Shown here: positions 7,396 to 48,884 of the stretch, in pieces | Layout of the letters: each line of letters opens with the position of its first letter | Position numbering within the stretch: position 1 is the first letter of the stretch | Origin: Elusimicrobiota bacterium | GTDB lineage: Bacteria > Elusimicrobiota > Elusimicrobia > UBA1565 > UBA9628 | Assembly (NCBI GenBank): GCA_023249645.1 | Contig: JAHFCF010000004.1 | Coordinates: 821 to 64,820, forward strand | DNA length: 64,000 nt | Direction: 5' to 3' | Made by a program: the position numbers and the translations under genes | The notes under the pieces: generated by a model | Seen by the model: the letters and a program-made list of their open reading frames with translations, nothing else | What the model was told of the DNA's origin: nothing | Databases searched by the model: none

Positions 7396-7479
7396 TTTTT
7401 CTTGAGCGCGATTATAACTATGATGCATCTTGAGGATATGGAACAATTTCCTTTATTCCCCGCCGGGAGGGCTTGAGTC

Positions 7480-7914
7480 GTGGAATCCATGACCCGCAAA
7501 AGATTCTTGAACCTGCTCCTGGGCGGCGGCGTGCTGGGCTGCCTCGGCTCGGTGATCTATCCCGTCCTGCGTTATCTGCTGCCGCCCGAACAGGTGGAGG
7601 CCGAGCCGGACACGCTGAAGGCCGGGACGATGAAGGATTTTCCCATCGGAGCCAGCAAGATCTTCAAGTTCGGCCGCCAACCCGTCATCGTGATCCGCGA
7701 CGTCAAGGGCGTCTTCCACGCCTTGACCGCGACGTGCACGCATCTCGACTGCATCGTACAATACAGCAAGGAAGCGGACCTGATCTGGTGCGCCTGCCAT
7801 AATGGGAAATACGATCTGAGCGGCAAGAACATCTCGGGTCCGCCGCCCCGGCCGCTGCAGGCGTTCACGGTGAGCGTCAAGGGCGAGGATGTCCTGGTGG
7901 TGAGGACGGCATGA
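7480..7914 (+). CDS. Rieske [2Fe-2S] subunit of a cytochrome bc/b6f-type complex
   Basis: CTHLDC...CACHNGKY Rieske boxes, N-terminal RKRFLN Tat-like signal; GGAGG RBS 9 nt upstream of GTG 7480. Confidence 0.9.
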   Translation: MESMTRKRFLNLLLGGGVLGCLGSVIYPVLRYLLPPEQVEAEPDTLKAGTMKDFPIGASKIFKFGRQPVIVIRDVKGVFHALTATCTHLDCIVQYSKEADLIWCACHNGKYDLSGKNISGPPPRPLQAFTVSVKGEDVLVVRTA

Positions 7915-10201: not shown

Positions 10202-10208
10202 TCGCTTC

Positions 10209-11742: not shown

Positions 11743-13092
11743 ATGCCAGAAGCACAAGGAACCGGGAGCAAAAAATTCGGAGTCGGCTTTATTCTCTTTT
11801 CGGTGCTTTTCACAGCCTGGCTTGTTCCGCCTCTGTATCGCGGGATCCAAGGGATCTGCCCCATGCGGCCGGGCCTTATTAAGGAAGCAGGGGCTGTCCC
11901 TGGCTTCGCCCGCAAATACGGCCTGAGCTGCTCACAGTGCCACACGGCCTGGCCCCTCCTCAATGATTACGGCCGGCAGTTCAAGCTCAACGGCTATGTG
12001 CGCGAACCGGGAAGCAAGGAAGGAGTTTTGGAAGGGTCGGGAGGGTATTGGACTGAGAAGATATTCCCCTGGGGCGTGGTGGCGCGTTCGCGGCCCTATG
12101 ACAAGAACACGACCGTCGACAGGGAGTTCCGCTTCCAACCTATCCAGGACGCGGACTTCTTCGTCGCTGGCGGGGACGCGGCCAAGCATATCTCCTGGTT
12201 CGGAGAGGTCGACGCCAACAACACGACCGACACGGCCTTCAGCGTGAACATGGCCGACATCCAAGCGGGCTACCATCCTAGCCAGTACCTCAACATCATC
12301 GCCGCCCGCCGCGGTTTCTTCGTCATGGATCCCTACCAGAACATCTCCAACTTCGGCAGCCCGACGATCACGGGACGCGCCATCGCCGGAGGCCAGACCG
12401 ACCAGGGCAACCTCTCGGGCAACGTGATGGACCAGACCACCCAGACCATGTTGGCTTTCGGTGAGGTGGACAAAGAGGGATTGGGAGCGCTCTACTACGC
12501 CGCGGGCATGTCGGCCGGAAACGCCAACGACACCGGCACGAGCGCCAAGGCCGGCAACCTGCGCCTGGCCTACGACACGCTCAAGGGCCTCGAGATCGGG
12601 GCCTTCGGCAGCTCGGGACGCGAATACAACGGGCTGGTGGATCAGAACGGCAACCAAGACCGGGTCAAGTTCACCAAATACGGGCTCGACTACACGCTCG
12701 AGGCCAAGGGCTTTGTCAGCCGCGGCGCCTGTCTCGTGTCCAACGAAAAGGACGAACAGTTGGCCAACTCAACGGTGGAGGTGGATGAGAACGGCAATCC
12801 CGTGATCAAGTCCACCACCAAGGCCGCCTATGCCGAACTTCTCTATGTCTATAAGAGGCAGGGCGACACGTTCCCGTTCCTCGTGCCCTTGGTGCGCGAG
12901 AACTGGTACACGACCTTCAACGGCAAGAGGAGCTTCAACTACGTCACGGCCCAGCTGGCCCATTACTTCGCTCCCAACATGAAGGGATTCGTGGAATGGT
13001 CCGGAGACACCAAGCAGGACTTGCAGGGCGTCAATAACGTGAGCTCTGCCAAGAGTTCGCGGTGGAGCCTGCAGTTCGAATTGGGCTTCTAG
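11743..13092 (+). CDS. Candidate Cyc2-like fused monoheme cytochrome c / outer-membrane beta-barrel porin
   Basis: Signal peptide, single CxxCH (CSQCH) within first ~70 aa, then ~380 aa of alternating amphipathic beta-strand-like sequence ending in ...LQFELGF (C-terminal Phe typical of OM barrels). Confidence 0.6.
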   Translation: MPEAQGTGSKKFGVGFILFSVLFTAWLVPPLYRGIQGICPMRPGLIKEAGAVPGFARKYGLSCSQCHTAWPLLNDYGRQFKLNGYVREPGSKEGVLEGSGGYWTEKIFPWGVVARSRPYDKNTTVDREFRFQPIQDADFFVAGGDAAKHISWFGEVDANNTTDTAFSVNMADIQAGYHPSQYLNIIAARRGFFVMDPYQNISNFGSPTITGRAIAGGQTDQGNLSGNVMDQTTQTMLAFGEVDKEGLGALYYAAGMSAGNANDTGTSAKAGNLRLAYDTLKGLEIGAFGSSGREYNGLVDQNGNQDRVKFTKYGLDYTLEAKGFVSRGACLVSNEKDEQLANSTVEVDENGNPVIKSTTKAAYAELLYVYKRQGDTFPFLVPLVRENWYTTFNGKRSFNYVTAQLAHYFAPNMKGFVEWSGDTKQDLQGVNNVSSAKSSRWSLQFELGF

Positions 13093-13875: not shown

Positions 13876-14928
13876 GTGGTCTTTCTTCGGCTGACCACTC
13901 CGGCCTTGGCCGCGAAGGCTCCTTCCCAGATCCAAAAATCAGCCGCCCTTTTCATCATGAAATGCGCCAAGTGCCACACGATCGGCGCCGGCGACCGCGT
14001 GGGGCCGGATCTGAGGGGGGCCGCTGACAGGCATGAACGCGAGTGGCTCGTGAAATTCATCATGAGTCCGGGAGTCTTTCTGGCCTCTGACCCCGCGGCC
14101 CAGAAACTTCTGGAAAAATACAACGGCGTACGCATGGAGGAGACGCATCTGGCTCGCGCGGACGTGGAAGGCATCCTGGAATATCTCAAGGCCGCCAGCG
14201 CCGGCGGATTGTCCTCGCAGGCGCCTCTTGCCGTCGAGGAAGAGCCCATGCGTCTCAAAGTCCGAATGCCGGAGGAGGGTTTCTCCGTCTTCTGGCCGGG
14301 GCTGGCGTTCCTTTTCCTTCTTTTGGCAGCGGCGGCGGCGCTTTGGCAATTTAGAGGCCATCGGCCGGCGATAGCCCTCTTGTTCGTCTGCGCTGCACTC
14401 GCCTATTGGACCTTCGGCGGCCGGCGCTACTATCACCTTTTGGGGAATCAGCAGGGCTATGAGCCGGTCCAGCCCATCGCTTTCTCCCACGCGCGCCACG
14501 CCGGGAGCCTGGGCATCGCCTGCCTCTACTGCCATTATGCGGCGGAAAGAAGCGATGTGGCGGCCGTGCCTGCGGTCAACGTCTGCATGAATTGCCACGG
14601 CGCCGTGCGCAAGGCTTTCTCTGCCAAGACCCCTTCCCCCGAGATCGCCAAGCTGCTTGCCGTCTGGGAGAAGCATGAGGCCTCGATCCCCTGGGTCAGG
14701 GTGCATCAGCTGCCGGATTACGTCCATTTCACGCACAGGATCCACGTCAACAATAATATCCAGTGCCAGGAATGCCACGGCCCCGTGGAGACGATGGAGC
14801 GCGTCCGGCAGGCCAGCGCGCTCTCCATGGGCTGGTGCATCGCCTGCCATCGCCTCAAGACGGGCGACGCGCCGTCGCACTGGAAGCGCGCCAGCGGGCC
14901 GCTGGACTGTGCGGCCTGCCATTGGTGA
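13876..14928 (+). CDS. actA: Alternative complex III subunit ActA, hexaheme (extra N-terminal class I monoheme domain + pentaheme domain, two TM helices)
   Basis: CAKCH...GP.L class-I domain, two hydrophobic helices, then CLYCH, CMNCH, CQECH, CIACH, CAACHW; GTG start. Confidence 0.85.
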   Translation: MVFLRLTTPALAAKAPSQIQKSAALFIMKCAKCHTIGAGDRVGPDLRGAADRHEREWLVKFIMSPGVFLASDPAAQKLLEKYNGVRMEETHLARADVEGILEYLKAASAGGLSSQAPLAVEEEPMRLKVRMPEEGFSVFWPGLAFLFLLLAAAAALWQFRGHRPAIALLFVCAALAYWTFGGRRYYHLLGNQQGYEPVQPIAFSHARHAGSLGIACLYCHYAAERSDVAAVPAVNVCMNCHGAVRKAFSAKTPSPEIAKLLAVWEKHEASIPWVRVHQLPDYVHFTHRIHVNNNIQCQECHGPVETMERVRQASALSMGWCIACHRLKTGDAPSHWKRASGPLDCAACHW

Positions 14929-17819: not shown

Positions 17820-19196
17820 ATGTCTGAAAAACATTTCTCAGTCCTGCGCGTGCCACTCGTCGACGGCGACAAGGATTGCCGGCAGGTCACCCGGGACATC
17901 TGCGCTCCCCTTCAAGTCGGCCCCACCCGCCTTTGGTACATCAGCTTCGCCGCCGCCGTGACGGCCTTGCTCATCGGCGTGACCGCGGTCACGGATCAGA
18001 TCTGGACCGGCATCGGGACCTGGGGCCTCAATAAGACGGTCGGCTGGTCCTGGGACATCACCAACTTCGTGTTCTGGGTCGGCATCGGCCATGCCGGCAC
18101 GCTCATCTCCGCCATCCTTTTCCTCTTCCGTCAGCACTGGCGCACCTCCATCAACCGTTCGGCCGAGGCCATGACCATCTTCGCCGTCATGTGCGCCGGA
18201 GTCTTCCCCGTCATCCACATGGGTCGGCCCTGGCTGGCCTATTGGGTCCTGCCCTATCCCAACCCCATGGGGCCTCTGTGGGTCAACTTCCGCTCCCCCT
18301 TGCTGTGGGATGTCTTCGCCATCAGCACCTATTTCACCATCTCGCTGACCTTTTGGTACGTGGGCCTTCTGCCGGACCTGGCCACCGCGGCCCGGGAGGT
18401 CGCCGAGCCTTGGCGGCGGCGCCTGTACAGCTGGCTGAGCCTCGGCTGGGACGGCTCCCAGAGGACCTGGTCCCACTACGAGAAGCTTTATCTGCTGCTG
18501 GCCGGACTGGCCACGCCGCTGGTCTTCTCCGTGCACACCATCGTCAGCTTCGACTTCGCCACCTCGATCGTCCCCGGCTGGCACACGACGATCTTCCCTC
18601 CCTACTTCGTCTGCGGCGCGATCTTCTCGGGCTTCGCGATGGTGCTCAGCCTCATGCTCATCGCGCGCCGGGTCATGAACTTCGAGGACTACATCACCCT
18701 GCGCCACATCGACGCGATGTGCAAGATCACGCTTCTCACCTCGCTCATCGTCGCTCTGGCTTACTCGACCGAGCTCTTCACCGCCTGGTACAGCGTCAAC
18801 CCTTACGAACGCTTCGCCTTCCTCAACCGCATCGAGGGCCCCTACCACTGGTTTTATCTGGTGATGATGACCTGCAACGTGGCCGTTCCCCAGGCCCTTT
18901 GGTCCAAGCGCGTGCGCACCACGCCCTGGGTGGTGTTTCTCATCTCGATCGCCATCAATATCGGCATGTGGCTGGAGCGCTTCGTGATCATCACGGTGTC
19001 CCTGCACCGGGATTTCCTGCCTTCCAGCTGGACGATGTACCATCCGACCTATATCGAGATCGCCACCTTCATCGGCAGCTTCGGACTCTTCTTCACCTGC
19101 TTCCTCCTTTTCTGCCGCCTGCTGCCGATGATCGCGATCAGCGAGATCAAGGGCGTGCTCCATCACGCGCGCCGCGCCCCGGGGGACGAGTCATGA
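17820..19196 (+). CDS. actC: Alternative complex III subunit ActC (NrfD/PsrC-family quinol-interacting membrane subunit)
   Basis: 458 aa polytopic membrane protein, NrfD-like; position after ActB. Confidence 0.9.
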
Positions 19197-19711
19197 ACCG
19201 CCTCTGGGTGGGGATCTTCGACTCGCACGAGCATCTGTTGCGCGCGACGCGCTTGGCCCGCCAGCGCGGCTTGACGATCCACGATACCTATGCGCCCTTC
19301 CCCATCCACGGCATGGATGAGGCCATGGGCCTGGAGCCGTCGCCCCTGGGATGGTTGTGCTTTCTCTTCGCCATGACAGGTCTGACCTTGGCGCTCTCAT
19401 TCCAATACTGGGTCTCGGTCTTCGACTGGCCCATGAACATCGGCGGAAAATCCTACAATGCCTCGCCCGCGCTGCTGCCCATCGCCTTCGAGTTCACCGT
19501 CCTGTGCGCCGGATTGGGCAGCGTGGCGGCCTTCCTGTTCCTGCGCCGGCTCTCCCCGGGCAAAAAGCCGGCCCTGGGCGGCTTGGGCGCTCTCGATGAC
19601 CGATTCCTGCTGGCCCTCCAGGCCGGGCCCGAGGCCTCCGCCGAAGAACTGCGCCGTTTCCTGCAGACGCAGGGGGCCTTGGATATTCACGAGGTGGCGC
19701 CAGACTCATGA
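19193..19711 (+). CDS. actD: Alternative complex III subunit ActD (DUF3341-type membrane subunit)
   Basis: [26 protein letters not shown]... with two TM helices; ATGA overlap with actC stop; only the in-frame 3' part of ORF 18191..19711 is real. Confidence 0.8.
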
Positions 19712-22056
19712 GGCGAAATCCCCTGCTGGCGGCAGGCCTTCTGCTCGCGGCGGCTGTCCTCACCTTCCTTCTGGCCGCCCGCCGCGACCTTAAGGAGCCG
19801 CACATCCACCTTTTCAGCGACATGATCACTTCTCCCGCCTACCACTCCCAAAGGCCCAATCCGGTTTTTCGCGACGGCCAGACCCAGCAGGCGCCGCCTC
19901 CCGGGACGATCCCCAGGGGATTTACGCCGTTTCATTACGGACCAGGCAGCGATGAGCGCGAGCGCGCCGGCAACGAGCTCAAGAACCCATTGGTGCCCAG
20001 CTATGAGGTCATGACTCGGGGCAAACATGTTTTTGAGAATTTCTGCGCCCATTGCCACGGACTCAAGGGGCGCGGCGATGGGCCCGTGGCCAGGGCTTTC
20101 CCTTCTTTTTCCTTTCCGGTCGCCAGCCAATCAGCCTACGCGCTCAAGGATGGGACTCTGTTCCACATCATCACCTGGGGCCGCAACCTCATGCCCTCGC
20201 ACTCTTCCCAGCTCTCCCAGGCGGATCGCTGGCAGCTCATCTATTATCTGCGCGACCTGCAGCGCCAGGAGATCGTGCGCCTGGGACCTCTGGCCGCCAT
20301 CCCCGAGGATCCGCGCCGGCGGGGCCTGGTCTCCAGGGATTACGGGCGCGAGCTCTTCGCCCAGAACTGCGCGGGCTGCCACGGGGAGGAGGGCCGCCAT
20401 CCCTTGCCGGGCATCCCCACCCTCCATGCTCCCAGCGTGCTGGCCATCGCCGAGGACAGCTATTATTGGGACATCATCAACCATGGGCGCCGCGGCACCC
20501 AGATGCAGGCTTGGAAGGATATCCTGACCGCCAGCCAGATCCAAAGCCTGATCGCCTATATCCGCTCATGGGCGACGCCGGTGACGGAACTCACCAAGAT
20601 CCTGGCTCAGCGCGGCGACTCCCAGCGCGGGCAGACGCTTTTTGCCCGGCAGTGCGCCGGCTGTCATGGAGCCGACGGCCGGGGAGGCATCGGGATCTCG
20701 CTCAAGGCCCCTTCGTTCATGGCGATCGTCTCGGATCAGTTCCTGCGCGACACCATCGCCATGGGCCGTGAGCACACGGCCATGCCCTCTTCCTATGATT
20801 TCAAGCCCGCGGATATCGCGGATATCATCGCGTACTTCCGCAGCTGGTCCGAGGCCGCTGCTGCCTATGTGGATGTGGCGCCCCTGATTTCGGCTGCTTC
20901 GGCATCGAACGGAGCCAAGCTCTTTCAGGCCCGATGCGCGGGCTGTCATGGAGCCAAGGGGGAAGGCGGGATCGGATCGCGGCTCAACAGCGACGGCTTT
21001 TTGGCCATGGCTGACAATAAATTCCTCTATCGCGTGATCGTGGAAGGCCGGCCCGGCACCGAGATGCCCGCCTGGCGCTTCCTCTCAGCCACCGAGCTCG
21101 CCGGGCTCATCGCCCAGATCCGCGCGTGGCAGAAGTCTCCCTCCGTGGTTTTGTCCACCGGGCCGGTCAAGGGCCGCTCTGAGTTCGGCGAAGTCCTCTA
21201 TCAGAAGGAATGCATCAAGTGCCACAGGGCCGGCGGGGCCGGCGATCTGGGAACGCAGATCGGCAATCCCGCCCTCCTGTCACAGGTCAGCGACCAGTTC
21301 CTTTGGCGGACGATCGCCTATGGCAAGAAGGGCACGGAGATGCAGGGCTTCCTCAAGAGGACGCGCAACCCGCTGCCCGAGGAGGATATCGGCCATCTCG
21401 TCGCCTATCTGCGGCAGATGCAAAAAAATCCGCCGCAGGAACTGCTCAAACGAACCTATTCCTGGGCCTCAGCAGCGGACGGAAAAAAAGTTTTCGAGGG
21501 TAAGGGCAAGTGCTTCAAGTGCCACGGGCTCCATGGGGAAGGCGGCAGCGGACCTTCCTTGGGAGGTCCCGGATTTCAGAGAGTGGCTTCAGCCGGCTTC
21601 ATCGCGGCCACGCTGGTGCTGGGCCGCGACAACACGGAAATGAAATCCTATGTCCGCGGCGGCGATGTCCAGCTCGGCGAGGAAGACATCGAGAACGTCT
21701 CGACCTATGTCCGCGGCTTCGAGAAGAATCCGCCTGCCGCGCCCCGGCAGGTGGACCGCTCCGAGATCCAGGTCAAGGCAGGACGCGCTCTCTTCCTGCA
21801 GAACTGCGCCAAGTGCCATGGCCGGCAGGGGCAGGGCTTGCACGGTAAGAAGGAGGGCGAGTTCGCGCCTTCCCTGAACAACGTGGATTTCCTCAGGGCG
21901 GCCGATGACAACTTCCTGCTGGCCACCATCGCCCTGGGCAGGCCCGGTACGCCCATGCCGTCCTTCGCCAAGGGCGACGTCGCAGTCCAACCGCTCCAGG
22001 CCGAGCAGATCCGCCAGGTGGTGGCGTTCATCCGGTCCTGGGAGAGGGGAAAGTGA
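19708..22056 (+). CDS. actE: ActE-like cytochrome c subunit extended by six additional class I monoheme cytochrome c domains (7 CxxCH total)
   Basis: N-terminal TM anchor and ActE-like region with CAHCHG, then CAGCHGEEG, CAGCHGADGRGG, CAGCHGAKGEGG, CIKCHRAGGAGD, CFKCHGLHGEGG, CAKCHGRQGQG each followed by G(T)xMP Met-ligand motif; ATGA overlap with actD. Confidence 0.85.
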   Translation: MRRNPLLAAGLLLAAAVLTFLLAARRDLKEPHIHLFSDMITSPAYHSQRPNPVFRDGQTQQAPPPGTIPRGFTPFHYGPGSDERERAGNELKNPLVPSYEVMTRGKHVFENFCAHCHGLKGRGDGPVARAFPSFSFPVASQSAYALKDGTLFHIITWGRNLMPSHSSQLSQADRWQLIYYLRDLQRQEIVRLGPLAAIPEDPRRRGLVSRDYGRELFAQNCAGCHGEEGRHPLPGIPTLHAPSVLAIAEDSYYWDIINHGRRGTQMQAWKDILTASQIQSLIAYIRSWATPVTELTKILAQRGDSQRGQTLFARQCAGCHGADGRGGIGISLKAPSFMAIVSDQFLRDTIAMGREHTAMPSSYDFKPADIADIIAYFRSWSEAAAAYVDVAPLISAASASNGAKLFQARCAGCHGAKGEGGIGSRLNSDGFLAMADNKFLYRVIVEGRPGTEMPAWRFLSATELAGLIAQIRAWQKSPSVVLSTGPVKGRSEFGEVLYQKECIKCHRAGGAGDLGTQIGNPALLSQVSDQFLWRTIAYGKKGTEMQGFLKRTRNPLPEEDIGHLVAYLRQMQKNPPQELLKRTYSWASAADGKKVFEGKGKCFKCHGLHGEGGSGPSLGGPGFQRVASAGFIAATLVLGRDNTEMKSYVRGGDVQLGEEDIENVSTYVRGFEKNPPAAPRQVDRSEIQVKAGRALFLQNCAKCHGRQGQGLHGKKEGEFAPSLNNVDFLRAADDNFLLATIALGRPGTPMPSFAKGDVAVQPLQAEQIRQVVAFIRSWERGK

Positions 22057-23216
22057 TGAGCGAGAGAGAGGGGATTTTTCGTCCGGATCAAAGGACCGTT
22101 CTGCGGCTCTGCATCGCAGCGGGCCTGGCGGCTTTTGCGGTCGGCCTGTGGAGGGCTCCCCACCGCGCCTGGGCCGGCCTGCTGCTCGGCAATTTTTATT
22201 TTCTGTCTTTGGCCCTGGCGGGAGCCGTCTTCCTGGCCGTGCAATATGCCGCCGGCGCCGGCTGGTTTGCCCTCTTGAAGCGCATCCCCGAGGCCATGAC
22301 CGCCTATCTGCCCGTCGGCGCAGGGCTGGTGGGCTTGCTGGGTCTCTGCGGGCTGCGGGATCTCTATGTTTGGGCCAACCCGGCCACGGCTTCCAATGAC
22401 CCGATCCTGCTGGCCAAGGCGGCGTTCCTCAATGTCCCCGGCTATCTCCTCACGGCCGCGGTCTGCCTGCTCCTCTGGCATTTCTTGATCCGAGGACTCG
22501 TGGCCAATTCCCAAGCCCAGGATGACAACGGCGATCTGGCTTATACGGCCAAGAACGCCCGGTTGTCCTGCATCTTTTTAGTCGTGTTCGCGCTGACTTT
22601 TTCCCTGGTGAGCATGCAATGGCTCATGTCCCTGGAGCCGCACTGGTACAGCACGATCTATCCCTGGTATCTGTTCGGGGGGATCTTCGTCAATGCCGTC
22701 GCCGTCATGACCCTGCTGCTCCTGCTTTTGCGCCATCGGGGGCTGCTGCCGGAGGTGCGCGCCGGGCACCTGCATGATCTCGGAGAATATCTCTTCGCGT
22801 TCAGCGCGTTGTGGGCTTATCTCTGGTTCTCGCAATACCTCCTGATCTGGTATTCCAACATCCCTGAAGAAACCGTTCACTATGCGGCACGCTTTGGTCC
22901 GGGTTGGAACATCCTCTTCTGGGCCAACCCCGTGGTCAACTTCATTGTTCCCTTCATCCTTCTGCTGGAGGAGAGGAGCAAGAAAGACGAGCGGAGGCTT
23001 TTGGCCGCGACGCTGGTTTTGATCGCAGGCCACTGGCTGGATCTCTACCTGCTTGTTTTTCCAGCGATCCTTCCCCGTCCGCTCCTGGGATTCATCGAAC
23101 TCGGGATGTTTTTGGGTTTGGCGGCCGCCTTTCTTTTGCGATTCGATCAGGCCTTTCGCCGAGCCCCGCCGATCCCGTCGCGGGATCCTTTTTTAGGCGA
23201 AAGCCTGCATCATTAG
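22056..23216 (+). CDS. actF: Alternative complex III subunit ActF (second NrfD-like membrane subunit)
   Basis: ~386 aa polytopic membrane protein; start ATG 22056 overlaps actE stop by 1 nt (or GTG 22053). Confidence 0.85.
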   Translation: MSEREGIFRPDQRTVLRLCIAAGLAAFAVGLWRAPHRAWAGLLLGNFYFLSLALAGAVFLAVQYAAGAGWFALLKRIPEAMTAYLPVGAGLVGLLGLCGLRDLYVWANPATASNDPILLAKAAFLNVPGYLLTAAVCLLLWHFLIRGLVANSQAQDDNGDLAYTAKNARLSCIFLVVFALTFSLVSMQWLMSLEPHWYSTIYPWYLFGGIFVNAVAVMTLLLLLLRHRGLLPEVRAGHLHDLGEYLFAFSALWAYLWFSQYLLIWYSNIPEETVHYAARFGPGWNILFWANPVVNFIVPFILLLEERSKKDERRLLAATLVLIAGHWLDLYLLVFPAILPRPLLGFIELGMFLGLAAAFLLRFDQAFRRAPPIPSRDPFLGESLHH

Positions 23217-24863
23217 TTAAGGCTTGAGCACCGCGCCGTCCGGGTGGCATTCCAGGCATTTGGCTCGGAAATCATGCTTGAGCGGCACGCGCTTGTGCGC
23301 GCCGATGTCGTGGCAGCTCACGCAGCCCATCATGTCGGTGTGGGCTTTATGCGGCATGGTCTTGCCGGCGAAGCGCACCGTTTCCGGAGGAACTTTCACC
23401 CCGATGCGGCCGTGGCATTGCAGGGCGCAATAGCTGCCGGAAAGCAGGGGCTCAGAGGAGATGTCGGGAAGATCGGCGTGGAGTTCTCTTCCCGCTTCGT
23501 CGAGGCTGCGGTCCAGAGTGCGCAACAGGACCGAGGCAAGGTAGATGTTGTGCGGGCCGTGGGCTGCTTGCAGGAAGGCGCGTAGACGCTCCGCCCGCTT
23601 CACGGCTGCTGCAGCCGCTGGCTGCGGGGTCTTCTCCAAGGCTGAGCGCGCGGCCGCGATCTTGTCGCCGGTCTTGGTCATGGCGGAATCGAGTTCCGCG
23701 CGCATCTCCTCCAGGATCCCCTGGAATTTGGCGCCGTGGCACTTGACGCAGGATTCGGGGGAAGGCTTCATAGTGTGGCCGCGAAAATCCGTGTCCGGTC
23801 CGGTCTCCGCCTGGTAGTGGCAGCCGTTGCAGTCCACATGGGCCAGATACATGGGGCTGGCCAGCTCCGGCAGGCCCACGGCCAGGTCCGGTCTCAACTT
23901 TCCGCAATAGAGCTGCAGCTGAGCCAAGTGCTTGTCCTCATGGCAGAGGCTGCAGTCGAAGACCAGGGTCGGCGGATGTCCGGCTGGAGCGGCGGCCGGC
24001 GCCGCGGCGGCGGCCGCGCCGGGCAGCTTGAGCGGCTGCTCTTGGGTCTGGAACCCATGCCGGATCTCTTCGTGGCAATGGAAGCAGGCGATGTTGTGCT
24101 TGGTGACGTGGTTTTCGTGGATGAATGGGATATCGCCGTAGCGGGCGAGATTCTCAGGCTGGTTGTGGCAGAGCAGGCAGCGTTCCTGCGGGGCTTTGCC
24201 CTTGCCCTGCACGGCTTCGAGATGGCAGTTCTGGCAGGAGACTCCCTGCCGGGTGACGAAGTCGCGGTGATTGTAGGTCATGTTGCCGAGCTGGAACGAT
24301 TTTTTCGGGAGATCGTGGCAGCCCAGGCAGCCCCCGATGGGCTTGAGTTCCTTGCCCTCTCCGCGCCCGCGGAAATGGCACAGGAAACAGGTATCATAGG
24401 TCACTTCGATATGCTTGCCGACCACGACTTGGGAATGGCAGGAGACGCATCGCAGCTGCCGGCCGCGGCGGGTTTCGGTGATGTGCGGCCGATGATCGAA
24501 GTGGATCCCGCTCTTGGTGAGCACCTTGCCTTGCAGCAGGCGCGTGGCGTGGCAGCCGGAGCGCAAACAGGAAGAGTCCTCGACCTCGGCAAAGGGCTTG
24601 GAGGAGTAGGTGCGGGTCACGTATTTGACTACCTGGGAGAGGGCCTGGAACTTCTTCCAGAGCAGGGTCCGGTGCGAGCTGGGGGGGTAATGACACTCCA
24701 CGCAGGCGATGTGATTGTGCTTGGAGGAGTGCCAGGCTTGGTAATAGGGCTCCATGATGTGACAGGAGCGGCAGAAGGAGGGGCTTGTGGAGTATTTGAC
24801 CAGACCGGCCATGATCAGAAGGACGGCCAGGCCCAGGCCGGCCAGCATCCGGATTGGTTTCAT
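23217..24863 (-). CDS. Membrane-anchored NapC/NirT/NrfH-family multiheme cytochrome c (13 CxxCH + 2 variant CX3-4CH motifs), ImcH-like
   Basis: N-terminal TM helix followed by FCRSCHIMEPYYQAWHSSKH...CVECH (NapC/NirT signature start), then CVSCH, CFLCH, CLGCH, CQNCH, CLLCH, CFHCH, CSLCH, CNGCH, CVKCH, CVSCH, CLECH plus CLRSGCH and CALQCH. Confidence 0.8.
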   Translation of the reverse strand: MKPIRMLAGLGLAVLLIMAGLVKYSTSPSFCRSCHIMEPYYQAWHSSKHNHIACVECHYPPSSHRTLLWKKFQALSQVVKYVTRTYSSKPFAEVEDSSCLRSGCHATRLLQGKVLTKSGIHFDHRPHITETRRGRQLRCVSCHSQVVVGKHIEVTYDTCFLCHFRGRGEGKELKPIGGCLGCHDLPKKSFQLGNMTYNHRDFVTRQGVSCQNCHLEAVQGKGKAPQERCLLCHNQPENLARYGDIPFIHENHVTKHNIACFHCHEEIRHGFQTQEQPLKLPGAAAAAAPAAAPAGHPPTLVFDCSLCHEDKHLAQLQLYCGKLRPDLAVGLPELASPMYLAHVDCNGCHYQAETGPDTDFRGHTMKPSPESCVKCHGAKFQGILEEMRAELDSAMTKTGDKIAAARSALEKTPQPAAAAAVKRAERLRAFLQAAHGPHNIYLASVLLRTLDRSLDEAGRELHADLPDISSEPLLSGSYCALQCHGRIGVKVPPETVRFAGKTMPHKAHTDMMGCVSCHDIGAHKRVPLKHDFRAKCLECHPDGAVLKP

Positions 24864-24933
24864 GATTTTTTGCCTTTGTAATTAGATAGCATATCGCGAG
24901 AGAAAACATGCATGACTTATGTTTTATATAAAT

Positions 24934-24947
24934 ATGACATTTGTCAT
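24934..24947. promoter_or_regulatory. Perfect ATGACatttGTCAT box in divergent region between the NapC-like cytochrome gene and gltA
   Basis: 14-bp box of ATGAY-N4-RTCAT type in 137-nt AT-rich divergent promoter region. Confidence 0.3.
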
Positions 24948-25000
24948 TTTTTTGGACAGGTGATTAGCAATATCATTGGAGAGCAGTCCCAGGAGGCATT

Positions 25001-34871: not shown

Positions 34872-36806
34872 TCAGAATTTGACATTGACGCCGGCATTGA
34901 CGACGCTGGCCCGGCCGCTGTTGCTCGAGTCGAACTTGTCGACCCAGTTGTCGATGCGGTAGCCGGCTCGTGCCGAGAGATGTTTGTACTTGGGCGGGGT
35001 GTACTCGACGGTCACGCTGCCGCGCGCGATGCGGATGTCGCGGGGCGTGTAGTCGCCGACGGCGCCCACGGTCGAAGCCCAGTGCATCGGCGTCTCTTCC
35101 TTTGACCAAGTATAGGAGCCGTTGCCCAGGACCACGAAGCCCATGGGGAGATTGATACGGCCATGTCCTCCGACCACGGTGTTTTTTTGGCGGTTGGACA
35201 TACCTCCCTCATGCCAGGCAATAGGGCTGGTCTGGGCCGCGACCAGGGTCGCTGCCGCGTTCCCAATGAAGCCGTTGGTGAAATAGCGGATGGTTTCATA
35301 AGAGGTGTCGGCTCCCACGCAGACCTTGTTGGTGGCCGCCCAATTCAAGCTGGCCCTGTAATCGTTGCGGCTCTCGGCATGGTTCCAGGGCATCTGGCTG
35401 CCCGTCCCGTCCATGTATTCCGTCGCGAGCACCATATCCACGCGCTGGGGGAGTGGCACCGTGATGGTCAGGCTGGCATCATTCTGCCGGTTGTTTTGAT
35501 TGCCGAAAGACGAATGGTTGGCTTGAAGGCGTTTGTAATCGGCATCAGCCTCGATCCCGAAGGGAAGCTCGGCTTTCGCGCCCACTCTGAAATTATGCCG
35601 CACATCGCTGTGGGCGGTCTGAGTGTTCTGTCCATTGGGCAGGACCAGGGTGCCGTCAGAGTAATACCCCACGGTTCCTTCGTTATAATCCCCATGGTCA
35701 CGGCGGTTGTCTATCTCTATCTTATAGGCCGCCGTCAGACGGACTGCTTCCACGGGTCTGTAGTTGGCGTTAAAGTCGCCCTTGAGGTTCGTCTTGTCCA
35801 TCTGGCTGCCATTGCCCTTGTTGCCGATAGGGCTGACGTAGCCGCTGTTCTCCTCGACTTGATAGGCGTTCAGATAGAGCTTCCCGGAGAGAGAAAGGTT
35901 CTGGCGGGCTTTGTAGGCCGCGTTGAGGGCTCCGACGATGGTGTTCCTCTTGTACCCGTTGCTCAGGTTTTCCCGCTGGCGGCCTGTCAAGGCCCCGGTC
36001 AGGCCCAGGTCCTTGCCCATATCCTGGCGGAATTTCAGTTCCGCGCCGGTCATCTGCTGCGCCCCAAAAATGGGTTTGAGCGTACTGTTGATGGCGTGGG
36101 TGTCTTTGGAAGTGTTGGAGTCATCTTTGAATTCGCTGTGCACGATGTCGAGGCTCACGGCGCCGTATTCATTGATGTTGGTCCCCAGGCCGATGATTAC
36201 GTCTCTCTTTGTATTGTTGACGTTGGCGGAGCCGAGCGTCGCGGTGCCTGAGGCGGTGCCCGGAGCCCTGGCCGCCATCGATCCGAATTTTTCCACGGTC
36301 CAGAACTCGGCGGATAACCACTGGGCTGCGTTCTCGGGATTGAGGAGGATCAGGTCGATGTCTGATTCCGTGCGCCGGACGACAAACTCCGTCGTGGTCG
36401 CGATATCCACGGTGGTGAAGTGGGTGGTCGGCTGCCAGGCTCCTTTGAGGATGATCCCGGTCCGGGCGTAGTCCTGGCGGTGGTGCATCGTGTCCACTTT
36501 CGCGCTGATCCTCAGGTTGTCTTGGTAGTCAGCGTTTAAAACACCGTTTTCTTCCGTGCTTCCGATATCCTTAAGCGAGAAATCAAAGAGTCCCTGCTTG
36601 CCCTGATTGGCGAGCTTGACGTCGCCGTGCATGTCTCGATAGAGCTTTCCGTCATATTCCTGGACACGGCCCCGGCTCTGTTCGAAGTCCAGATGAACAA
36701 AGCGCATGGCCACGGCATTGTCCGTGGCGGCAGCCGCATCTTCCTCGGCGCGTGCGGACCAGGCGCCGGCGCCCATCAGCAGGCCGATCAATAGGAATCG
36801 TGTCAT
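34872..36806 (-). CDS. Large outer-membrane beta-barrel protein, candidate MtrB/MtoB/PioB-type porin partner of the upstream decaheme cytochrome
   Basis: Signal peptide (MTRFLLIGLLMGAGAWSARA), ~640 aa of Gly/Asn/Tyr-rich alternating sequence, C-terminal ...VNVKF; immediately downstream of decaheme gene on the same strand. Confidence 0.5.
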   Translation of the reverse strand: MTRFLLIGLLMGAGAWSARAEEDAAAATDNAVAMRFVHLDFEQSRGRVQEYDGKLYRDMHGDVKLANQGKQGLFDFSLKDIGSTEENGVLNADYQDNLRISAKVDTMHHRQDYARTGIILKGAWQPTTHFTTVDIATTTEFVVRRTESDIDLILLNPENAAQWLSAEFWTVEKFGSMAARAPGTASGTATLGSANVNNTKRDVIIGLGTNINEYGAVSLDIVHSEFKDDSNTSKDTHAINSTLKPIFGAQQMTGAELKFRQDMGKDLGLTGALTGRQRENLSNGYKRNTIVGALNAAYKARQNLSLSGKLYLNAYQVEENSGYVSPIGNKGNGSQMDKTNLKGDFNANYRPVEAVRLTAAYKIEIDNRRDHGDYNEGTVGYYSDGTLVLPNGQNTQTAHSDVRHNFRVGAKAELPFGIEADADYKRLQANHSSFGNQNNRQNDASLTITVPLPQRVDMVLATEYMDGTGSQMPWNHAESRNDYRASLNWAATNKVCVGADTSYETIRYFTNGFIGNAAATLVAAQTSPIAWHEGGMSNRQKNTVVGGHGRINLPMGFVVLGNGSYTWSKEETPMHWASTVGAVGDYTPRDIRIARGSVTVEYTPPKYKHLSARAGYRIDNWVDKFDSSNSGRASVVNAGVNVKF

Positions 36807-36828
36807 GGCATTATCCTCGCTGTGTCCT

Positions 36829-37695: not shown

Positions 37696-37808
37696 TTTTG
37701 ATGTCCTCCGTAATTTATGATGAAACATTAAGATTAGTATGACAAAAAGGTCATTTTTTCACAATGACGGACATTATGGAAAAAGGATGACGTTCGCCGG
37801 TTAAATCA

Positions 37809-39324: not shown

Positions 39325-40352
39325 TTTTTCCTCCGGAGGAATGTCCACGTCAGTCCGACGGTGAGGAGAAGAAATCCGGCATAGACCAGCGGCACGCCAG
39401 GGTCCCGGCTGACCAGGAGGCTGGAATACTGGGGATTCTCGGGATCGTAGCCGGCTTGATAAAGGGTGTAGCCTCCCCAGCGCAGGGGCTGGTTGACCTC
39501 GATGGCGCGCCGCACGGCGACCCATCCGCCCTGGATGATGGCGACCTGGCTGTGGAACTGCTTGATCTTCCCGAAGGCGGGTTCGTAGGAGACTTGATAG
39601 CGGCTCTTGGCTTCTCCGTGGAAGTCAGGGAATCGGGCGAAGGCCCAGTGTTTTTCAGAGCCTTCACGGTCCGTGATCTCCAGGTGCAGGGCGGGATTCT
39701 GGGGCGCTGAGGAGCGCGTGGCCGGACCCTGGTTGTCGATGATGAAATCAGGGAAGTACTCTAAGACTTTGATCTGGATGGCTCCGGCGCGCAGCAGCGC
39801 CGTGGCGCCCGGCTGGACGTCGAACTTCTCGCTCCAACCCTCACGGCGGCTGGTCACGGTGAGGCTGTGCAGGCCGGAGTCATAGTACTCGATGCCGAAG
39901 TCCTCGAGCTTGACGGAGAAAGGCAGCCGGAAGCCCTGGGGGCCCTCGGTCATGTTCTTGCTTTCGCCCACGCTCAGGGGGAGGCTCCCGTGCAGGCCCA
40001 GGATCGCGCTGAGCATCCCTCCGATGAGGATCGTCAAGACCGCCAGGTGGGTCAAGAGCACGTCGAGGCGCAATCGCACACCGCGCGTAAGGAGAACGCC
40101 GTCGCGCGGTGCCTGGCCCTTTCCATACAGCCAGGCATGGATCTGGCGCTGCCAGGTGCAGAGGGTCAGGTTGATCCCCAAGAGGCCCAGGAGAGCCGTG
40201 AAGAGGAGGGAATGGTAGATGTCTATTTTGGGGAGCAGGGTCCCTGCCACGCAGAGGAGGAGCAAGGCGAGCAGGAGTCCATAAAGGAAGGGGGGTGAAG
40301 CCAGAAAGTCCAAGGCTTTGGAGACAGTGCCTTCCTTATTGTGATGGGTCAT
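39321..40352 (-). CDS. ccsB: Cytochrome c biogenesis protein CcsB/ResB (system II)
   Basis: 343 aa, N-terminal TM helices, large periplasmic domain, C-terminal TM; partnered with ccsA. Confidence 0.85.
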   Translation of the reverse strand: MTHHNKEGTVSKALDFLASPPFLYGLLLALLLLCVAGTLLPKIDIYHSLLFTALLGLLGINLTLCTWQRQIHAWLYGKGQAPRDGVLLTRGVRLRLDVLLTHLAVLTILIGGMLSAILGLHGSLPLSVGESKNMTEGPQGFRLPFSVKLEDFGIEYYDSGLHSLTVTSRREGWSEKFDVQPGATALLRAGAIQIKVLEYFPDFIIDNQGPATRSSAPQNPALHLEITDREGSEKHWAFARFPDFHGEAKSRYQVSYEPAFGKIKQFHSQVAIIQGGWVAVRRAIEVNQPLRWGGYTLYQAGYDPENPQYSSLLVSRDPGVPLVYAGFLLLTVGLTWTFLRRKK

Positions 40353-42195
40353 GTCGTTTCTGGTGTTCTAGCCGGGTCTTGCCGGTTATCCAGGCCCAGC
40401 TCATGGGGTAGACTTCGGGGTCGAAGATGGTCCAGTAGAGGTGCCAGACCAGGATGGCCAGGCAGGCGAGGACAGCTTCCATGAAGTGGATCAGCAGGCA
40501 TAGATCGATGAACCATTTGGACAGGAACCTCAGCGACAGCTCACGCCACCAGGCCACGCCGCCGGTGACAATCATGATGCCGCTGCCCCACATCAGGGCC
40601 CAGTATTCGGCCTTCTCGATGTAGTTGAAGCGGTCGAATTTTGGCGGGCCGCCGCGATGTAAGAGATTGTACCGCTGCAGTTGCAGAAAGTCCAGGAAGT
40701 CGCGCCAGCGCGGAGAGAGGGCCTTGAGCTCTCGGCGTCCTTCCGGGGTGGCCGTGAGCCAGTAGAGGTGATAGGCGCCCAACGTGAGGAAGATCACGGC
40801 GAAGAGGCGGTGCAGGAAGGCGCGCTGAGCCGCGCCCGCGGCGCCATGGAAGACAGCCTGAGCCCAGAAGGCTTCTGGGTATGTATGGCAGAATCCCGTG
40901 TAGGCCAGTCCGATGAACGAGACGAGAAGGATGAGATGCTGTATCCGCTCATTGCGGCTCATCCGCAGTTCCTTGGGATCGTGCGCGTGATCGGGGCCGA
41001 GGAGGAGTTTGCGCTTGTGGTCCAGAAAATTATGGAGGAGCATGCCGCCGATGGTCGCCAGGATGAGCCAGATGTAGATCTTGCGGACGGTCTGAAGCAC
41101 CGTCTCGCGGATGTCGCGCGAGGTCGTGGAGAAGGTCATGTGGACCTTCCCCAGATGGACCAGCTCTCCGGCGCGGCTGTGGCAGGCGCCGCAGGTTTTC
41201 TGGAGGTTCGCGGGATTGACCGATGAATCGGGGTCCGAGGAGGGCAGGATGTCATGATAGCGGTGGCAGGAGGCGCAGTTGGCTGAGGCCAGGTTGCCGG
41301 CCACGAAGGCTACTCCGTGGTAGCTGTCCAGGTAGGTCCGGGCGGGGTCGAGGGGCATGCCAAATTTGGCGATGAGCAGTTCCGAGCCGTGGCAGGCGCT
41401 GCAGGTCTTGACGATGGAGCCGGTGTAGACCATGGAACCGGGCTCCTTGTGGGCCGTGATGTTGTGCTCTCCGTGGCAATTCGTGCAGACCGGCGCGTCC
41501 TTGACCCCGGATGCGGACTTCACCCCGTGGATGGAGCGTGAATAAGCAGCCAGAGCTTTCGGGTGGCAGCGGCCGCAGGTTTGGGGGATGTTGAACTTGT
41601 AGGCGCGGCTTCGGGAGTTGTTGGAGAAGTTGAGATCATGCGCGCCGTGGCAGTCGATGCAGACCGCGGCCTTGGAATCTTGGTGTTCCAGCATGGCTTT
41701 CCCATGCACGCTCGCCGTGTAGGTGGAGAAAGGCTCTAGGCCGAACTTCCCTTTGAAGTCGAGCTTCTGGTGACAGCGGTTGCAGGTCATCGGGATGCGG
41801 GAGCGGGAGACCGGAGAGGATGGACCGGAGGTGCGGCTCATTTCATGAGGCGGGCCATGACAGGCGGCGCAGAGGGCGGCGCCCTTGTGGGTTTTTGCTA
41901 AGAGCTTGCCGTGGTCCGAGGAGTGGAGGACTTGCGATATTTTTTGGTGGCAGGCCTCGCAGGAGACCGGCGGTGCCTTGGGATCGTGGGGGACTTCCTC
42001 CTTGCCGGCGTGGCAGGAACTGCAGCCCAGGTCCTTGTGCACTGACTTTTGGAAGCGGGCCGCGTGTATCTGGGGCGCGCCGCTGGCGCGATCGGCATGG
42101 CAGGCCAGGCAGGACGCGTCATCTCCGGCCCATGCCGTGGTCGCGGCCCAGAGCATCCAGGCCACGGCGGAGCAGAACCGCGCCGGGGTCCTCAT
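40336..42195 (-). CDS. Fusion of an 11-heme periplasmic cytochrome c domain with a C-terminal HydC/FdnI-like di-heme cytochrome b membrane domain (CbcL-like quinol oxidoreductase)
   Basis: Signal peptide (MRTPARFCSAVAWMLWAATTAWA), 11 CxxCH, then 4-5 TM helices with conserved His (Ni/Fe-hydrogenase b-type cytochrome subunit-like); ATGA overlap with upstream regulator gene. Confidence 0.8.
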   Translation of the reverse strand: MRTPARFCSAVAWMLWAATTAWAGDDASCLACHADRASGAPQIHAARFQKSVHKDLGCSSCHAGKEEVPHDPKAPPVSCEACHQKISQVLHSSDHGKLLAKTHKGAALCAACHGPPHEMSRTSGPSSPVSRSRIPMTCNRCHQKLDFKGKFGLEPFSTYTASVHGKAMLEHQDSKAAVCIDCHGAHDLNFSNNSRSRAYKFNIPQTCGRCHPKALAAYSRSIHGVKSASGVKDAPVCTNCHGEHNITAHKEPGSMVYTGSIVKTCSACHGSELLIAKFGMPLDPARTYLDSYHGVAFVAGNLASANCASCHRYHDILPSSDPDSSVNPANLQKTCGACHSRAGELVHLGKVHMTFSTTSRDIRETVLQTVRKIYIWLILATIGGMLLHNFLDHKRKLLLGPDHAHDPKELRMSRNERIQHLILLVSFIGLAYTGFCHTYPEAFWAQAVFHGAAGAAQRAFLHRLFAVIFLTLGAYHLYWLTATPEGRRELKALSPRWRDFLDFLQLQRYNLLHRGGPPKFDRFNYIEKAEYWALMWGSGIMIVTGGVAWWRELSLRFLSKWFIDLCLLIHFMEAVLACLAILVWHLYWTIFDPEVYPMSWAWITGKTRLEHQKRHDPSQ

Positions 42196-42944
42196 TGGGG
42201 AGACTGTTCGAGGGAGATGTTTTCGAGGGCGGTCCGGTTGCGGACTTCGATGGCCTTTCCCGTGAGACGGATGAGGCCCCGGTTCTGGAAAGAGGAGAGG
42301 GTGCGGATCACGGTCTCCGGAGAGAGTCCGAGATTCTCCGCGATGTCCCGACGGCTGTAATGGAAATGGCCATGGCAAGGCAGGGCGGCCGCCGGCGCGG
42401 GCGGGGTGCGCAGCGAGATGAGGAAGTTCGCCAACCGGGCTTCGGCCGAGCGAAAGGCGAAACTAAAGACCCGGTCCATGCTCTGGCACATGTAGCGGCT
42501 GACCCGGCGCAGGAGCCGTTTGGGAAGCTCCGGCTCATGGGAGGCTAGGTAGTCCACGAGTTCGCGCGGCAGGAAGCAGACCACGGATTCGCGCATGGTT
42601 TCCGCCGAGGCGCAATAGGACTGTATGCCCAGGAAAGGAGCCTCGCCCACCAGGTCGCCGCAGGAGTGATACATGAGCGTCAGTTCGCGTCCGCGCTGGT
42701 CGGATTTGGTGATCTTGACGTCGCCGACGCAGAGGATGAAGATGCCTTGGGGCGTCTCGCCCTCCTGAAAGATGAACTGATGGGTCTTGTAGCGTCGCAT
42801 TTGGCGTTGGGTCCGGAAGTGTTTCATGGATTCGGGCGACAGAAAGTTGAAGAAGCAGCGCTTGCGGCAGTCGCAGTCGCGGCAATGCTCGGCCGGCTGG
42901 AAGGGACAGGACAGGGGAGATGTGGGGGTTCTTTTGTATCCCAT
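42192..42944 (-). CDS. Crp/Fnr-family transcriptional regulator with N-terminal Cys cluster (Fnr-like), paralog 2
   Basis: N-terminal CPFQPAEHCRDCDCRKRC, cNMP-binding-like core, C-terminal HTH (SRRDIAENLGLSPETVIRTL); stop overlaps start of CbcL-like gene. Confidence 0.8.
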   Translation of the reverse strand: MGYKRTPTSPLSCPFQPAEHCRDCDCRKRCFFNFLSPESMKHFRTQRQMRRYKTHQFIFQEGETPQGIFILCVGDVKITKSDQRGRELTLMYHSCGDLVGEAPFLGIQSYCASAETMRESVVCFLPRELVDYLASHEPELPKRLLRRVSRYMCQSMDRVFSFAFRSAEARLANFLISLRTPPAPAAALPCHGHFHYSRRDIAENLGLSPETVIRTLSSFQNRGLIRLTGKAIEVRNRTALENISLEQSPQ

Positions 42945-43842: not shown

Positions 43843-43956
43843 GCAGGACAGTATACTAAAACTATTAGAAAGCCTTATAGAGGCATAAGGAGAAATCGTT
43901 AACGGCCGCAGGTGAGCGCATGATATGATGGACGCGACGCTGAGGAGGATCCTTCC

Positions 43957-45407: not shown

Positions 45408-45410
45408 GCC

Positions 45411-48875: not shown

Positions 48876-48884
48876 GAGCCCATC

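Follow-up and report, generated by a model that had tools for sequence, protein, structure and literature searches.

What is the role of a multiheme cytochrome gene that stops directly against an alternative complex III (ACIII) operon in an Elusimicrobiota genome? The gene lies at 23217..24863 (−) of a 64,000-nucleotide stretch of contig JAHFCF010000004.1 (GenBank assembly GCA_023249645.1), hereafter the window. It is complete, with an ATG start and 548 amino acids plus stop, and encodes a pentadecaheme c-type cytochrome (FAM in our annotation); public ENA and Logan contigs encode a protein identical to its product. For extracellular electron transfer (EET), the recognised inner-membrane quinol oxidases/quinone reductases fall into just three families, CymA, CbcL/MtoC and ImcH, and the original prediction for this locus, made from the sequence alone, described the cytochrome as ImcH-like. 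We find instead a distinct family with an NrfH-type quinol dehydrogenase at its N-terminus, and we consider it fairly probable that the protein is an inner-membrane quinol:periplasm electron gate in an EET-type cytochrome network.

Heme sites and modules of the cytochrome

The predicted protein has 31 cysteines and carries 13 canonical CxxCH motifs together with one Cx4CH (C99-LRSG-C104-H105; 24549..24569, −) and one Cx3CH motif (C479-ALQ-C483-H484; 23412-23429, −), which confirms the original count and gives 15 heme sites. In 20,000 shuffles of the protein's own residues, CxxCH occurred 0.12 times on average and never more than 3 times, so that 13 copies are far beyond chance. Both variant motifs had been noted in the original prediction, and they proved to be conserved: in an alignment of 117 homologs, drawn from the top 120 (49-75% identity, near full length), C99/C104/H105 and C479/C483/H484 are invariant, as are all 15 heme sites. 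The complete 13+1+1 architecture is found in 106/117 of these homologs. In 9/117, a 2-residue deletion shortens Cx4CH to Cx2CH, and because a plain Cx2CH stands at this position, Cx4CH can be regarded as a true heme site.

At least 1001 homologs were found in a search of a 5.8-billion-protein collection. Source names among the top 120 are mostly "NapC/NirT family cytochrome c" or "cytochrome c3 family protein", and the metagenome-assembled genomes from which they derive belong to Elusimicrobia, Deltaproteobacteria, Riflebacteria, Coatesbacteria, Eisenbacteria and Planctomycetota, with Elusimicrobiota as the nearest named relatives. A scan of one genome per species showed that at least 583 genomes carry a relative, and its best 80 also include anammox bacteria, Omnitrophota, Firestonebacteria, NC10/Methylomirabilis, Nitrospinae and Acidobacteriota. 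A hidden Markov model (HMM) search of 1.84 billion 50%-identity representatives returned 470 sequences at E ≤1e-30 and 1272 at E ≤1e-10, the best 147 of which were aligned with hmmalign as a divergent set. Each of the first 12 heme sites is found here in at least 142 of ~144 representatives (144/144 for the motifs of hemes 5 and 7, 144/145 for heme 6) and the C-terminal triheme in about 105-110 of the 147. An analysis of the co-loss of His ligands and heme sites across the 147 was not informative, as the 12-heme core hardly varies. The three longest relatives among the public representatives (P0324, P0350 and P0363; 1321-1441 amino acids) carry an N-terminal polytopic membrane domain of ~870 residues in place of the single transmembrane (TM) anchor; this domain is heme-free, and a fusion to CbcL was accordingly rejected for them.

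As judged by profile and motif comparisons, the protein is composed of a TM helix, an NrfH-like tetraheme (hemes 1-4), a c3-like triheme (hemes 5-7), an OcwA/NrfA-like pentaheme with a helix bundle (hemes 8-12) and a c7-like triheme (hemes 13-15). There is only one hydrophobic segment (residues ~3-26), C31 follows it by five residues, and the corresponding single N-terminal TM anchor (residues ~6-25; 24789..24848, −) aligns with the TM helix of NrfH. An AlphaFold2 model of the full protein (pLDDT 84.6, pTM 0.78) places a helix at 2-25. Hemes 5-7 (C159, C179 and C210; residues ~150-215; 24219..24416, −) are matched by the Pfam families Cytochrom_c3_2, Cytochrome_C7 and Cytochrom_CIII. The C-terminal triheme (residues 471-548; 23220..23453, −), of which the Cx3CH motif is the first site, is matched by Cytochrome_C7; this model (PF14522) scores 56.7 bits on the protein against a cut-off of 24.8. 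Residues ~500-542 match c7 structures in the PDB weakly (E 0.0035-0.0054).

The N-terminal module (hemes 1-4; residues 7-146; 24426..24845, −) bears out the NapC/NirT/NrfH signature that had been read there. Pfam PF03264 (Cytochrom_NNT, NapC/NirT) scores 31.8 bits over residues 8-89 (gathering score 24.1), and the NrfH model TIGR03153 scores 67.5 bits over residues 7-146, spanning all four NrfH hemes (model positions 7-136 of 138), a score that falls under the equivalog cut-off of 134.2. The NapC/NirT subfamily model TIGR02161 was not among the matches for the protein, and no nrfA gene was identified among the window open reading frames (ORFs) submitted to Pfam. The best solved sequence relative of the module is Desulfovibrio vulgaris NrfH (2j7a_C; E 1.3e-7 with the whole protein, 2.7e-9 with the N-terminus), and NrfH is also the top Foldseek match in the PDB for the full AlphaFold2 model (80 residues, root-mean-square deviation 2.4 Å). 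Where the sequence alignment with NrfH is free of gaps, C31/H35/M37 fall on C43/H47/Met49 of NrfH, H49 on H61, and K70/K71 on or beside Lys82; the heme 1 motif, C31RSC34H35-I-M37, is thus of the NrfH type (CxxCHxM), with a predicted Met ligand. M37, K71 and Y86 are invariant in the 117 homologs, Q77 is present in 113/117 and D96 in 116/117, and M37 is retained in 127/139 of the divergent representatives.

The protein therefore shares with NrfH, the quinol dehydrogenase of the NrfHA nitrite reductase (PDB 2J7A/2VR0), both the single N-terminal TM helix and the CxxCHxM heme 1. However, NrfH is a tetraheme protein of about 140-160 residues that is paired with nrfA, whereas here 548 residues bind 15 predicted hemes, 11 of them in a C-terminal fusion, and the expected position of NrfH heme 3 is occupied by the Cx4CH site. 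A further difference lies in the pocket helix, which reads K-x5-Q, as in ImcH, and not K-x6-D.

Between the two trihemes lies a module of the OcwA/NrfA superfamily (residues ~216-470; 23454..24218, −) that the original prediction had missed. It contains hemes 8-12 (C229, C260, C304, C345 and C372), a variable Ala/Pro linker (270-300) and a three-helix bundle (383-460) with an invariant H438-N439. When the profile of the 117-homolog alignment was compared with all PDB sequences, the best match was OcwA of Thermincola potens (6i5b_A, E 2e-14), ahead of NrfH, with profile positions 244-496 aligned to 268-502 of the chain. The alignment pairs DRC229LLCH with DRCLKCH, C260 with VTCQVCH, C345 with VTCVDCH and C372 with DSCSSCH, and it extends to PSPM338Y/PSVMY and, in the bundle, to GEH438N439IYLA/GVHNYDLA; the CTQCH of OcwA, which lies opposite the variable linker, probably corresponds to C304. 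Foldseek gave weak matches of the full model to NrfA and MccA. For a separate model of residues 196-470 (pLDDT 80.7), OcwA took ranks 1-2 and NrfA of G. lovleyi, E. coli and W. succinogenes ranks 3-8, each with a probability of 1.00 and with E-values of only 0.008-0.05. Taken together, five consecutive heme sites and the three-helix bundle, including the PSxMY and G(V/E)HN motifs, align with the OcwA (PDB 6I5B)/NrfA/MccA/HAO superfamily. OcwA itself, from a monoderm, is a soluble nonaheme cytochrome of the cell surface; its N-terminal half is c554-like, and two of its hemes are open. The module described here, in contrast, sits between an NrfH-type anchor and a c7-like tail and has two additional histidines, His249 and His252.

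Heme 8 deserves separate attention. Hemes 5-9 of OcwA superimpose on hemes 1-5 of NrfA, and the distal site of OcwA heme 5 is open under HH380/381; in our HMMER alignment, heme 8 takes the place of this heme. The invariant H312 pairs with the first His of the HH380/381 motif (chain index 351), and M338 with a Met of OcwA, a protein in which one heme has His/Met ligation. The family lacks the His that precedes the HH motif in OcwA, while OcwA lacks both H249 and H252, which are invariant and lie just after heme 8. The CxxCK motif is absent from the protein. Outside the motifs, His 49, 124, 127, 151, 199, 249, 252, 269, 312, 438, 508 and 523 are invariant in the 117 homologs, as is M338, and H505 occurs in 116/117. 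Together the 12 invariant His, H505 and M338 make 14 conserved ligand candidates for the 14 hemes other than heme 1, a number consistent with an electron wire in which all hemes are six-coordinate, although the authors of the OcwA study noted that such ligand counting misled for OcwA.

Relationship to ImcH

ImcH, represented by GSU3259 of Geobacter sulfurreducens, has three N-terminal TM helices in a membrane domain of ~130 residues and a length of 495-519 amino acids. Its first heme has an atypical Cx3CH motif with His/Gln ligation and is followed by six CxxCH, giving 7 hemes, and the quinol pocket residues E127, K173, Q179 and Y188 are conserved. Across its family, 6-10 heme sites are found in ~480-600 residues, with a spacing of about 135/159/208/317/434/454/494. 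We compared the cytochrome with residues ~100-290 of GSU3259, rebuilt from the optical character recognition text of a supplement with the numbering checked against published ligand positions, and with N-terminal fragments of up to 342 residues; the comparison thus covers the N-terminal part of ImcH.

Against the rebuilt fragment, BLASTP aligned 104 residues at 29% identity (pairwise E 4e-10); the match spans only residues 6-104, with the last part of the TM helix, hemes 1-2 and the helix after them. An HMM built from 69 ImcH N-terminal fragments scored 39.7 bits on the protein, over residues 21-87 only. The ImcH-type fragments all have CGxxCH, with CVECH 25 residues and CEQCH 49 residues further on, and the heme spacing of our protein agrees with ImcH for hemes 1-3 only and then diverges. 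On the NrfH model, the ImcH fragments score 45-53 bits over model positions 3-109; the cytochrome fits this model better and over a longer span (67.5 bits over 7-136). The two families have in common a quinol site derived from NapC/NirT to which a longer multiheme domain in the periplasm is attached, the motif FCxxCH(x)xMEPxYxAWxxSxHxxVxCVECH, co-occurrence with a CbcL-type protein and a K/Q/Y triad, for which the spacing K71-x5-Q77-x8-Y86 equals exactly that of ImcH (K173-x5-Q179-x8-Y188). The Gln equivalent, Q77, is thus conserved despite the different heme 1 motif.

Membership in ImcH was rejected because there is one TM helix rather than three, CxxCHxM rather than Cx3CH at heme 1, and 15 hemes rather than 7. 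The ImcH-like identity was therefore not borne out: in the N-terminal part of ImcH that was compared, homology is confined to ~70-100 residues around hemes 1-2, and the features that define ImcH are absent. On the sequence comparisons, the family is best described as a sister lineage within the NapC/NirT superfamily that has an ImcH-like pocket helix. A 2018 survey of EET quinol oxidases also reported no ImcH homolog in Elusimicrobia. The same survey listed a CbcL homolog, A2506_03110, and the locus tag next to it, A2506_03115, is a member of the 15-heme family.

Genomic neighbourhood and the junction with ACIII

Relatives of the gene are found among other electron-transfer modules. Within 6 kb of the family gene, 82 non-redundant loci have large CbcL-type cytochrome genes (45), Rieske/cytochrome b genes (25), iron-sulfur (FeS)/NrfD (Cbc4-like) genes (16) or ACIII (2). 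Of the 40 loci with full flanks, 12 have NrfCD-type modules and 13 have Rieske/cytochrome b, the bc-type complex often in the same operon. In 32/70 loci with enough flank, a full-length homolog of the CbcL-like protein of the window is encoded directly upstream on the same strand, and such homologs lie within 6 kb in 44/70; the proposed pairing with a CbcL-type protein thus finds clear support in the relatives. MtrA-like genes are near the family gene in 19 loci, porin-like genes in 8 and ResB/CcsA in about a dozen. One relative (L089, 66% identity) has the order Crp, MtrA-like, porin-like homolog (651 amino acids, no Pfam match), CbcL-like, CbcL-like, family gene, FeS and one more gene, truncated where the contig ends, and Crp/MtrA-like/porin-like homologs also co-occur in L016, L019, L064 and L072. 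No mtrAB adjoins imcH, whereas the 15-heme family is syntenic with cbcL-type genes and, in several loci, with mtrAB-like genes.

The window holds Rieske/cytochrome b, ACIII, porin/MtrA/Crp, CcsA/ResB and CbcL-like parts of these neighbourhoods, but in dispersed form. A CbcL/MtoC-type gene (40336..42378, −; 11 CxxCH plus diheme cytochrome b, with Ni_hydr_CYTB at residues 473-654 and c7/c3 domains; the true start is probably near 42195) lies 15.5 kb from the cytochrome gene. Thus, of the statement that ImcH and CbcL types occur within one 20-kb stretch, the CbcL part stands and the ImcH part falls. In transcription order, this gene opens a cluster (34872-42378, −) that continues with ResB and CcsA of System II cytochrome c biogenesis (38554-40352, −), a Crp-family regulator (37809-38564, −), an MtrA-like decaheme (36829-37728, −) and a porin-like protein of 663 residues with a weak MtrB/PioB match (34872-36863, −), these last three assigned by Pfam. 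This porin-cytochrome-type cluster suggests a capacity for EET in an Elusimicrobiota-like genome. A Rieske/cytochrome b/nine-heme c (Paired_CXXCH) module (7477-10201, +) is 65-78% identical to the module that follows the family gene in L003.

The ACIII operon (+) comprises actA (13876-14928), actB (to 17813), actC (17820-19196), actD (to 19711), a gene in the actE position (19708-22056) and the actF-like gene (22053..23216), which encodes an NrfD-like polytopic membrane subunit with weak similarity to ActC (22% over 214 residues). Two of its products have unexpected additions: the ActA-like subunit, with 6 CxxCH, has an extra N-terminal class-I cytochrome c domain (PF00034, 21-106) before its c7/c3-type part, and the ActE-position protein (782 amino acids) consists of seven tandem class-I (cbb3-type) cytochrome c domains, a 779-residue version of which is encoded at the corresponding position in the nearest relative, L088. 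ActE is usually a monoheme protein, and a seven-domain protein in its position is therefore unusual.

We confirmed that the stop codons of actF (TAG, 23214-23216) and of the cytochrome gene (complement of TAA, 23217-23219) adjoin with no intergenic base. The genes do not run head-to-tail, as had been stated, but converge tail-to-tail. Nor is the junction quite free of terminator-like sequence on either side: a hairpin followed by a T-run (GATCCCG-TCG-CGGGATC CTTTTTT; 23171..23195, +) lies within the last 45 nucleotides of actF and appears in the minimum-energy fold of the junction. Such an element is not above chance, however (1 found versus 2.3 expected in shuffles). The junction as a whole folds no better than shuffled sequence (z = -0.27 and +0.26). 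On its other side, the cytochrome gene shares an AT-rich region of 137 nucleotides (24864..25000) with a divergent citrate synthase gene, and it is therefore monocistronic in the window.

In L088, the nearest relative (75% identity), a partial ORF and an NrfD-type gene precede the family gene, which is translationally coupled to the latter and converges on actF across a gap of 35 nucleotides. In four further loci (L010, L011, L072 and L080) the family gene converges on the NrfD gene that ends a CbcS-FeS-NrfD operon, with gaps of +7, +4, +3 and -4 nucleotides. Since these NrfD junctions recur and ActF is NrfD-like, the abutment on ACIII is a compact, lineage-specific version of a recurrent NrfD-operon neighbourhood that needs no special overlap mechanism, and the special meaning attached to the ACIII junction is not upheld. 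FeS/NrfD-type modules are frequent operon neighbours of the family. The membrane-anchored multiheme subunits CbcS of the Cbc4 complex (CbcSTU) and ActA of ACIII likewise act together with quinone modules of the FeS/NrfD type; they differ in that they bind 4-6 hemes and themselves lack an NrfH-type quinol pocket. Similarity of the family to the ActA structures 8k9e and 6f0k is weak (E 0.0014-0.023). Identity as an ACIII subunit was rejected on the basis of this weak similarity, the opposite strand, the convergence on actF and the presence of ACIII near only 2/82 other loci.

A perfect palindrome, ATGACATTTGTCAT (24934-24947), lies in the intergenic region upstream of the cytochrome gene and agrees with the CRP/FNR-type box TGAY-N4-RTCA. 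The window has 12 such sites against 2.9 ± 1.7 expected, a number reached in 0/100 shuffles. Six are intergenic or at gene edges: 7384 (upstream of Rieske), 11642 and 11664 (upstream of the ORF before ACIII), 24935 (between the cytochrome and citrate synthase genes), and 58649 and 58690 (at the start of a nitric oxide (NO) reductase gene). These six boxes may mark a common regulon, and a Crp-family gene is present in the window and in the clusters of several relatives. The box is not family-wide, since it was found directly upstream of the family gene in only 5/78 loci (background 3.3%).

Further genes of the window include a set for nitrogen-oxide stress or respiration (55100-60799), with a hemerythrin/DUF438/PAS protein (55100-56422, −), a quinol-type NO reductase (qNOR) with an N-terminal cytochrome-c-like domain (56382-58661, −) and the hybrid cluster protein Hcp (59141-60799, +). 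An HdrD-like CCG protein, an HdrA-like FAD/FeS protein and the small and large subunits of a [NiFe]-hydrogenase are encoded at 44013-50408 (+), with a LysR regulator upstream (42970-44052, −). Between the bc-type module and ACIII, we found an ORF for ankyrin repeats with a caspase (Peptidase_C14) domain (10020-11630, +) and one for a protein of 449 residues without a Pfam match (11743-13092, +). The latter is the ORF immediately before actA and has two FNR-like boxes in front of it. Two tandem prolipoprotein diacylglyceryl transferase (Lgt) paralogs are present at 4858-6422 (+).

Proposed function and its alternatives

The relatives' gene is co-transcribed or clustered with CbcL/MtoC, NrfD, Rieske/cytochrome b and MtrA/porin genes, and on this ground a quinone-pool gate of an EET-type network is the most likely function. 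From the motifs, their conservation, the module homologies and the neighbourhoods we infer that quinol is oxidised, which way electrons flow and with which partners, as follows. The protein would be anchored in the inner membrane and face the periplasm with 15 covalently bound hemes. Lys71, Gln77 and Tyr86 would surround a menaquinol pocket at the outer face of the membrane, as in NrfH and ImcH, and quinol would be oxidised at heme 1, with electroneutral release of protons to the periplasm as in NrfH, CymA and ImcH. Electrons would then move along the heme chain, through an 11-heme relay that includes the OcwA/NrfA-derived module and is fused to the NrfH-type quinol dehydrogenase, to periplasmic or outer-membrane partners. 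The role would be that of CymA in Shewanella or ImcH in Geobacter, filled by a distinct family. CymA, the NapC/NirT tetraheme hub that feeds MtrAB, offers the closest parallel to the inferred role as a membrane-anchored quinol dehydrogenase for a porin-cytochrome conduit, and both CymA and the 15-heme family cluster with mtrAB-like genes in some genomes; yet CymA, with 4 hemes, depends on soluble shuttles in the periplasm, whereas the protein described here carries its own 11-heme extension.

Several points weigh against this assignment. Linkage in the window genome is weak, because the cytochrome gene is monocistronic and 10-15 kb from the MtrA/porin/CbcL genes. The best 80 relatives of the genome scan all come from uncultured genomes, no member is characterised, and we found no 15-heme NrfH fusion or Elusimicrobia description of the protein in the literature searched. 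The count of 15 hemes presumes that the System II machinery (ResB/CcsA) would mature the Cx3CH and Cx4CH sites, and the direction of the reaction, quinol oxidation or quinone reduction, is not readable from the sequence. Finally, heme 8 aligns with the open heme 5 of OcwA, which corresponds to heme 1 of NrfA.

The last of these points belongs to an alternative that we hold to be improbable, a fused "NrfH-NrfA-like" enzyme in which an open heme 8 would use electrons from the quinol oxidised at heme 1 to reduce one of several small substrates (nitrite, NO, hydroxylamine, sulfur oxyanions, or chelated metals and shuttles). The homology of hemes 8-12 and the helix bundle to OcwA and NrfA, the alignment of the invariant H312 with the distal-pocket His of OcwA, the reduction of nitrite and hydroxylamine by OcwA itself and a type of promoter box shared with the qNOR promoter region of the window are all in keeping with such an enzyme. 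Yet the conserved His and Met would suffice to make all hemes six-coordinate, the extra H249 and H252 could close the heme 8 site, and the protein has no CxxCK; furthermore, the neighbourhoods consist of electron-transfer modules and not of N- or S-cycle enzymes, and three more hemes follow the module, as expected for a relay. Equally doubtful is a protein that works in reverse, as a quinone reductase fed by a donor in the periplasm or outside the cell (Mto-type Fe(II) oxidation or electron uptake), as has been proposed for CymA in Sideroxydans. Metal reducers and metal oxidisers alike have members of the CbcL/MtoC and CymA families, the MtrA-like and porin-like genes of the window adjoin the CbcL/MtoC-type gene, and ACIII with its seven-domain class-I cytochrome c, Rieske/cytochrome b and qNOR suggest high-potential acceptors. 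Nothing in the sequence sets this direction either, however, and NrfH-type modules are known experimentally mainly as quinol oxidases.

Less probable still is a dedicated redox partner of ACIII whose stop-to-stop junction would reflect coupled expression or antisense control. The gene does converge on actF both in the window and in its nearest relative, ACIII lies within 6 kb in L030 and L069, NrfD-family operons hold the same position in the four loci with gaps of -4 to +7 nucleotides, and ActBC are homologs of NrfD-family modules. But ACIII is nearby in only 2/82 other loci, the gap widens in L088, the junction has no unusual structure, and convergent genes cannot be co-transcribed; moreover, the protein needs no ACIII because it keeps a complete quinol site of its own. 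The least credible of the alternatives is an ImcH ortholog that would partner CbcL as its high-potential quinol oxidase, in the manner of Geobacter. It could draw on the common NapC/NirT core with its BLASTP match, the identical K-x5-Q-x8-Y triad and the synteny of the relatives with CbcL-type genes. Against it stand the differences in TM helix number, heme 1 motif and heme total, homology that ends after heme 2-3 in the part of ImcH compared, the higher and longer match to NrfH, the diverging heme spacing and the result of the 2018 survey.

If the protein is a quinone-pool gate, surveys that look for CymA, ImcH and CbcL alone would underestimate the electron-transfer capacity of groundwater and sediment phyla. 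Database labels for family members read only "NapC/NirT family" or "cytochrome c3 family" proteins. A bolder possibility, to which we give little weight, is that the family forms a fourth class of inner-membrane quinone-pool gates for extracellular or periplasmic electron transfer, next to CymA, CbcL/MtoC and ImcH, which has kept a substrate-accessible heme in its NrfA/OcwA-derived module. One polypeptide would then combine an "NrfH-NrfA-type" quinol:substrate oxidoreductase with a wire and operate alongside CbcL- and NrfD-type modules. If true, this class would extend over many uncultured phyla, including Elusimicrobiota, Omnitrophota, Planctomycetota (anammox bacteria among them), Methylomirabilota and Desulfobacterota-type bacteria. 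The architecture is a clear case of module grafting in the evolution of multiheme cytochromes, and one cultured carrier was found, Planctomycetales bacterium ZRK34 (protein QNN20962.1), which would make the gate hypothesis testable.

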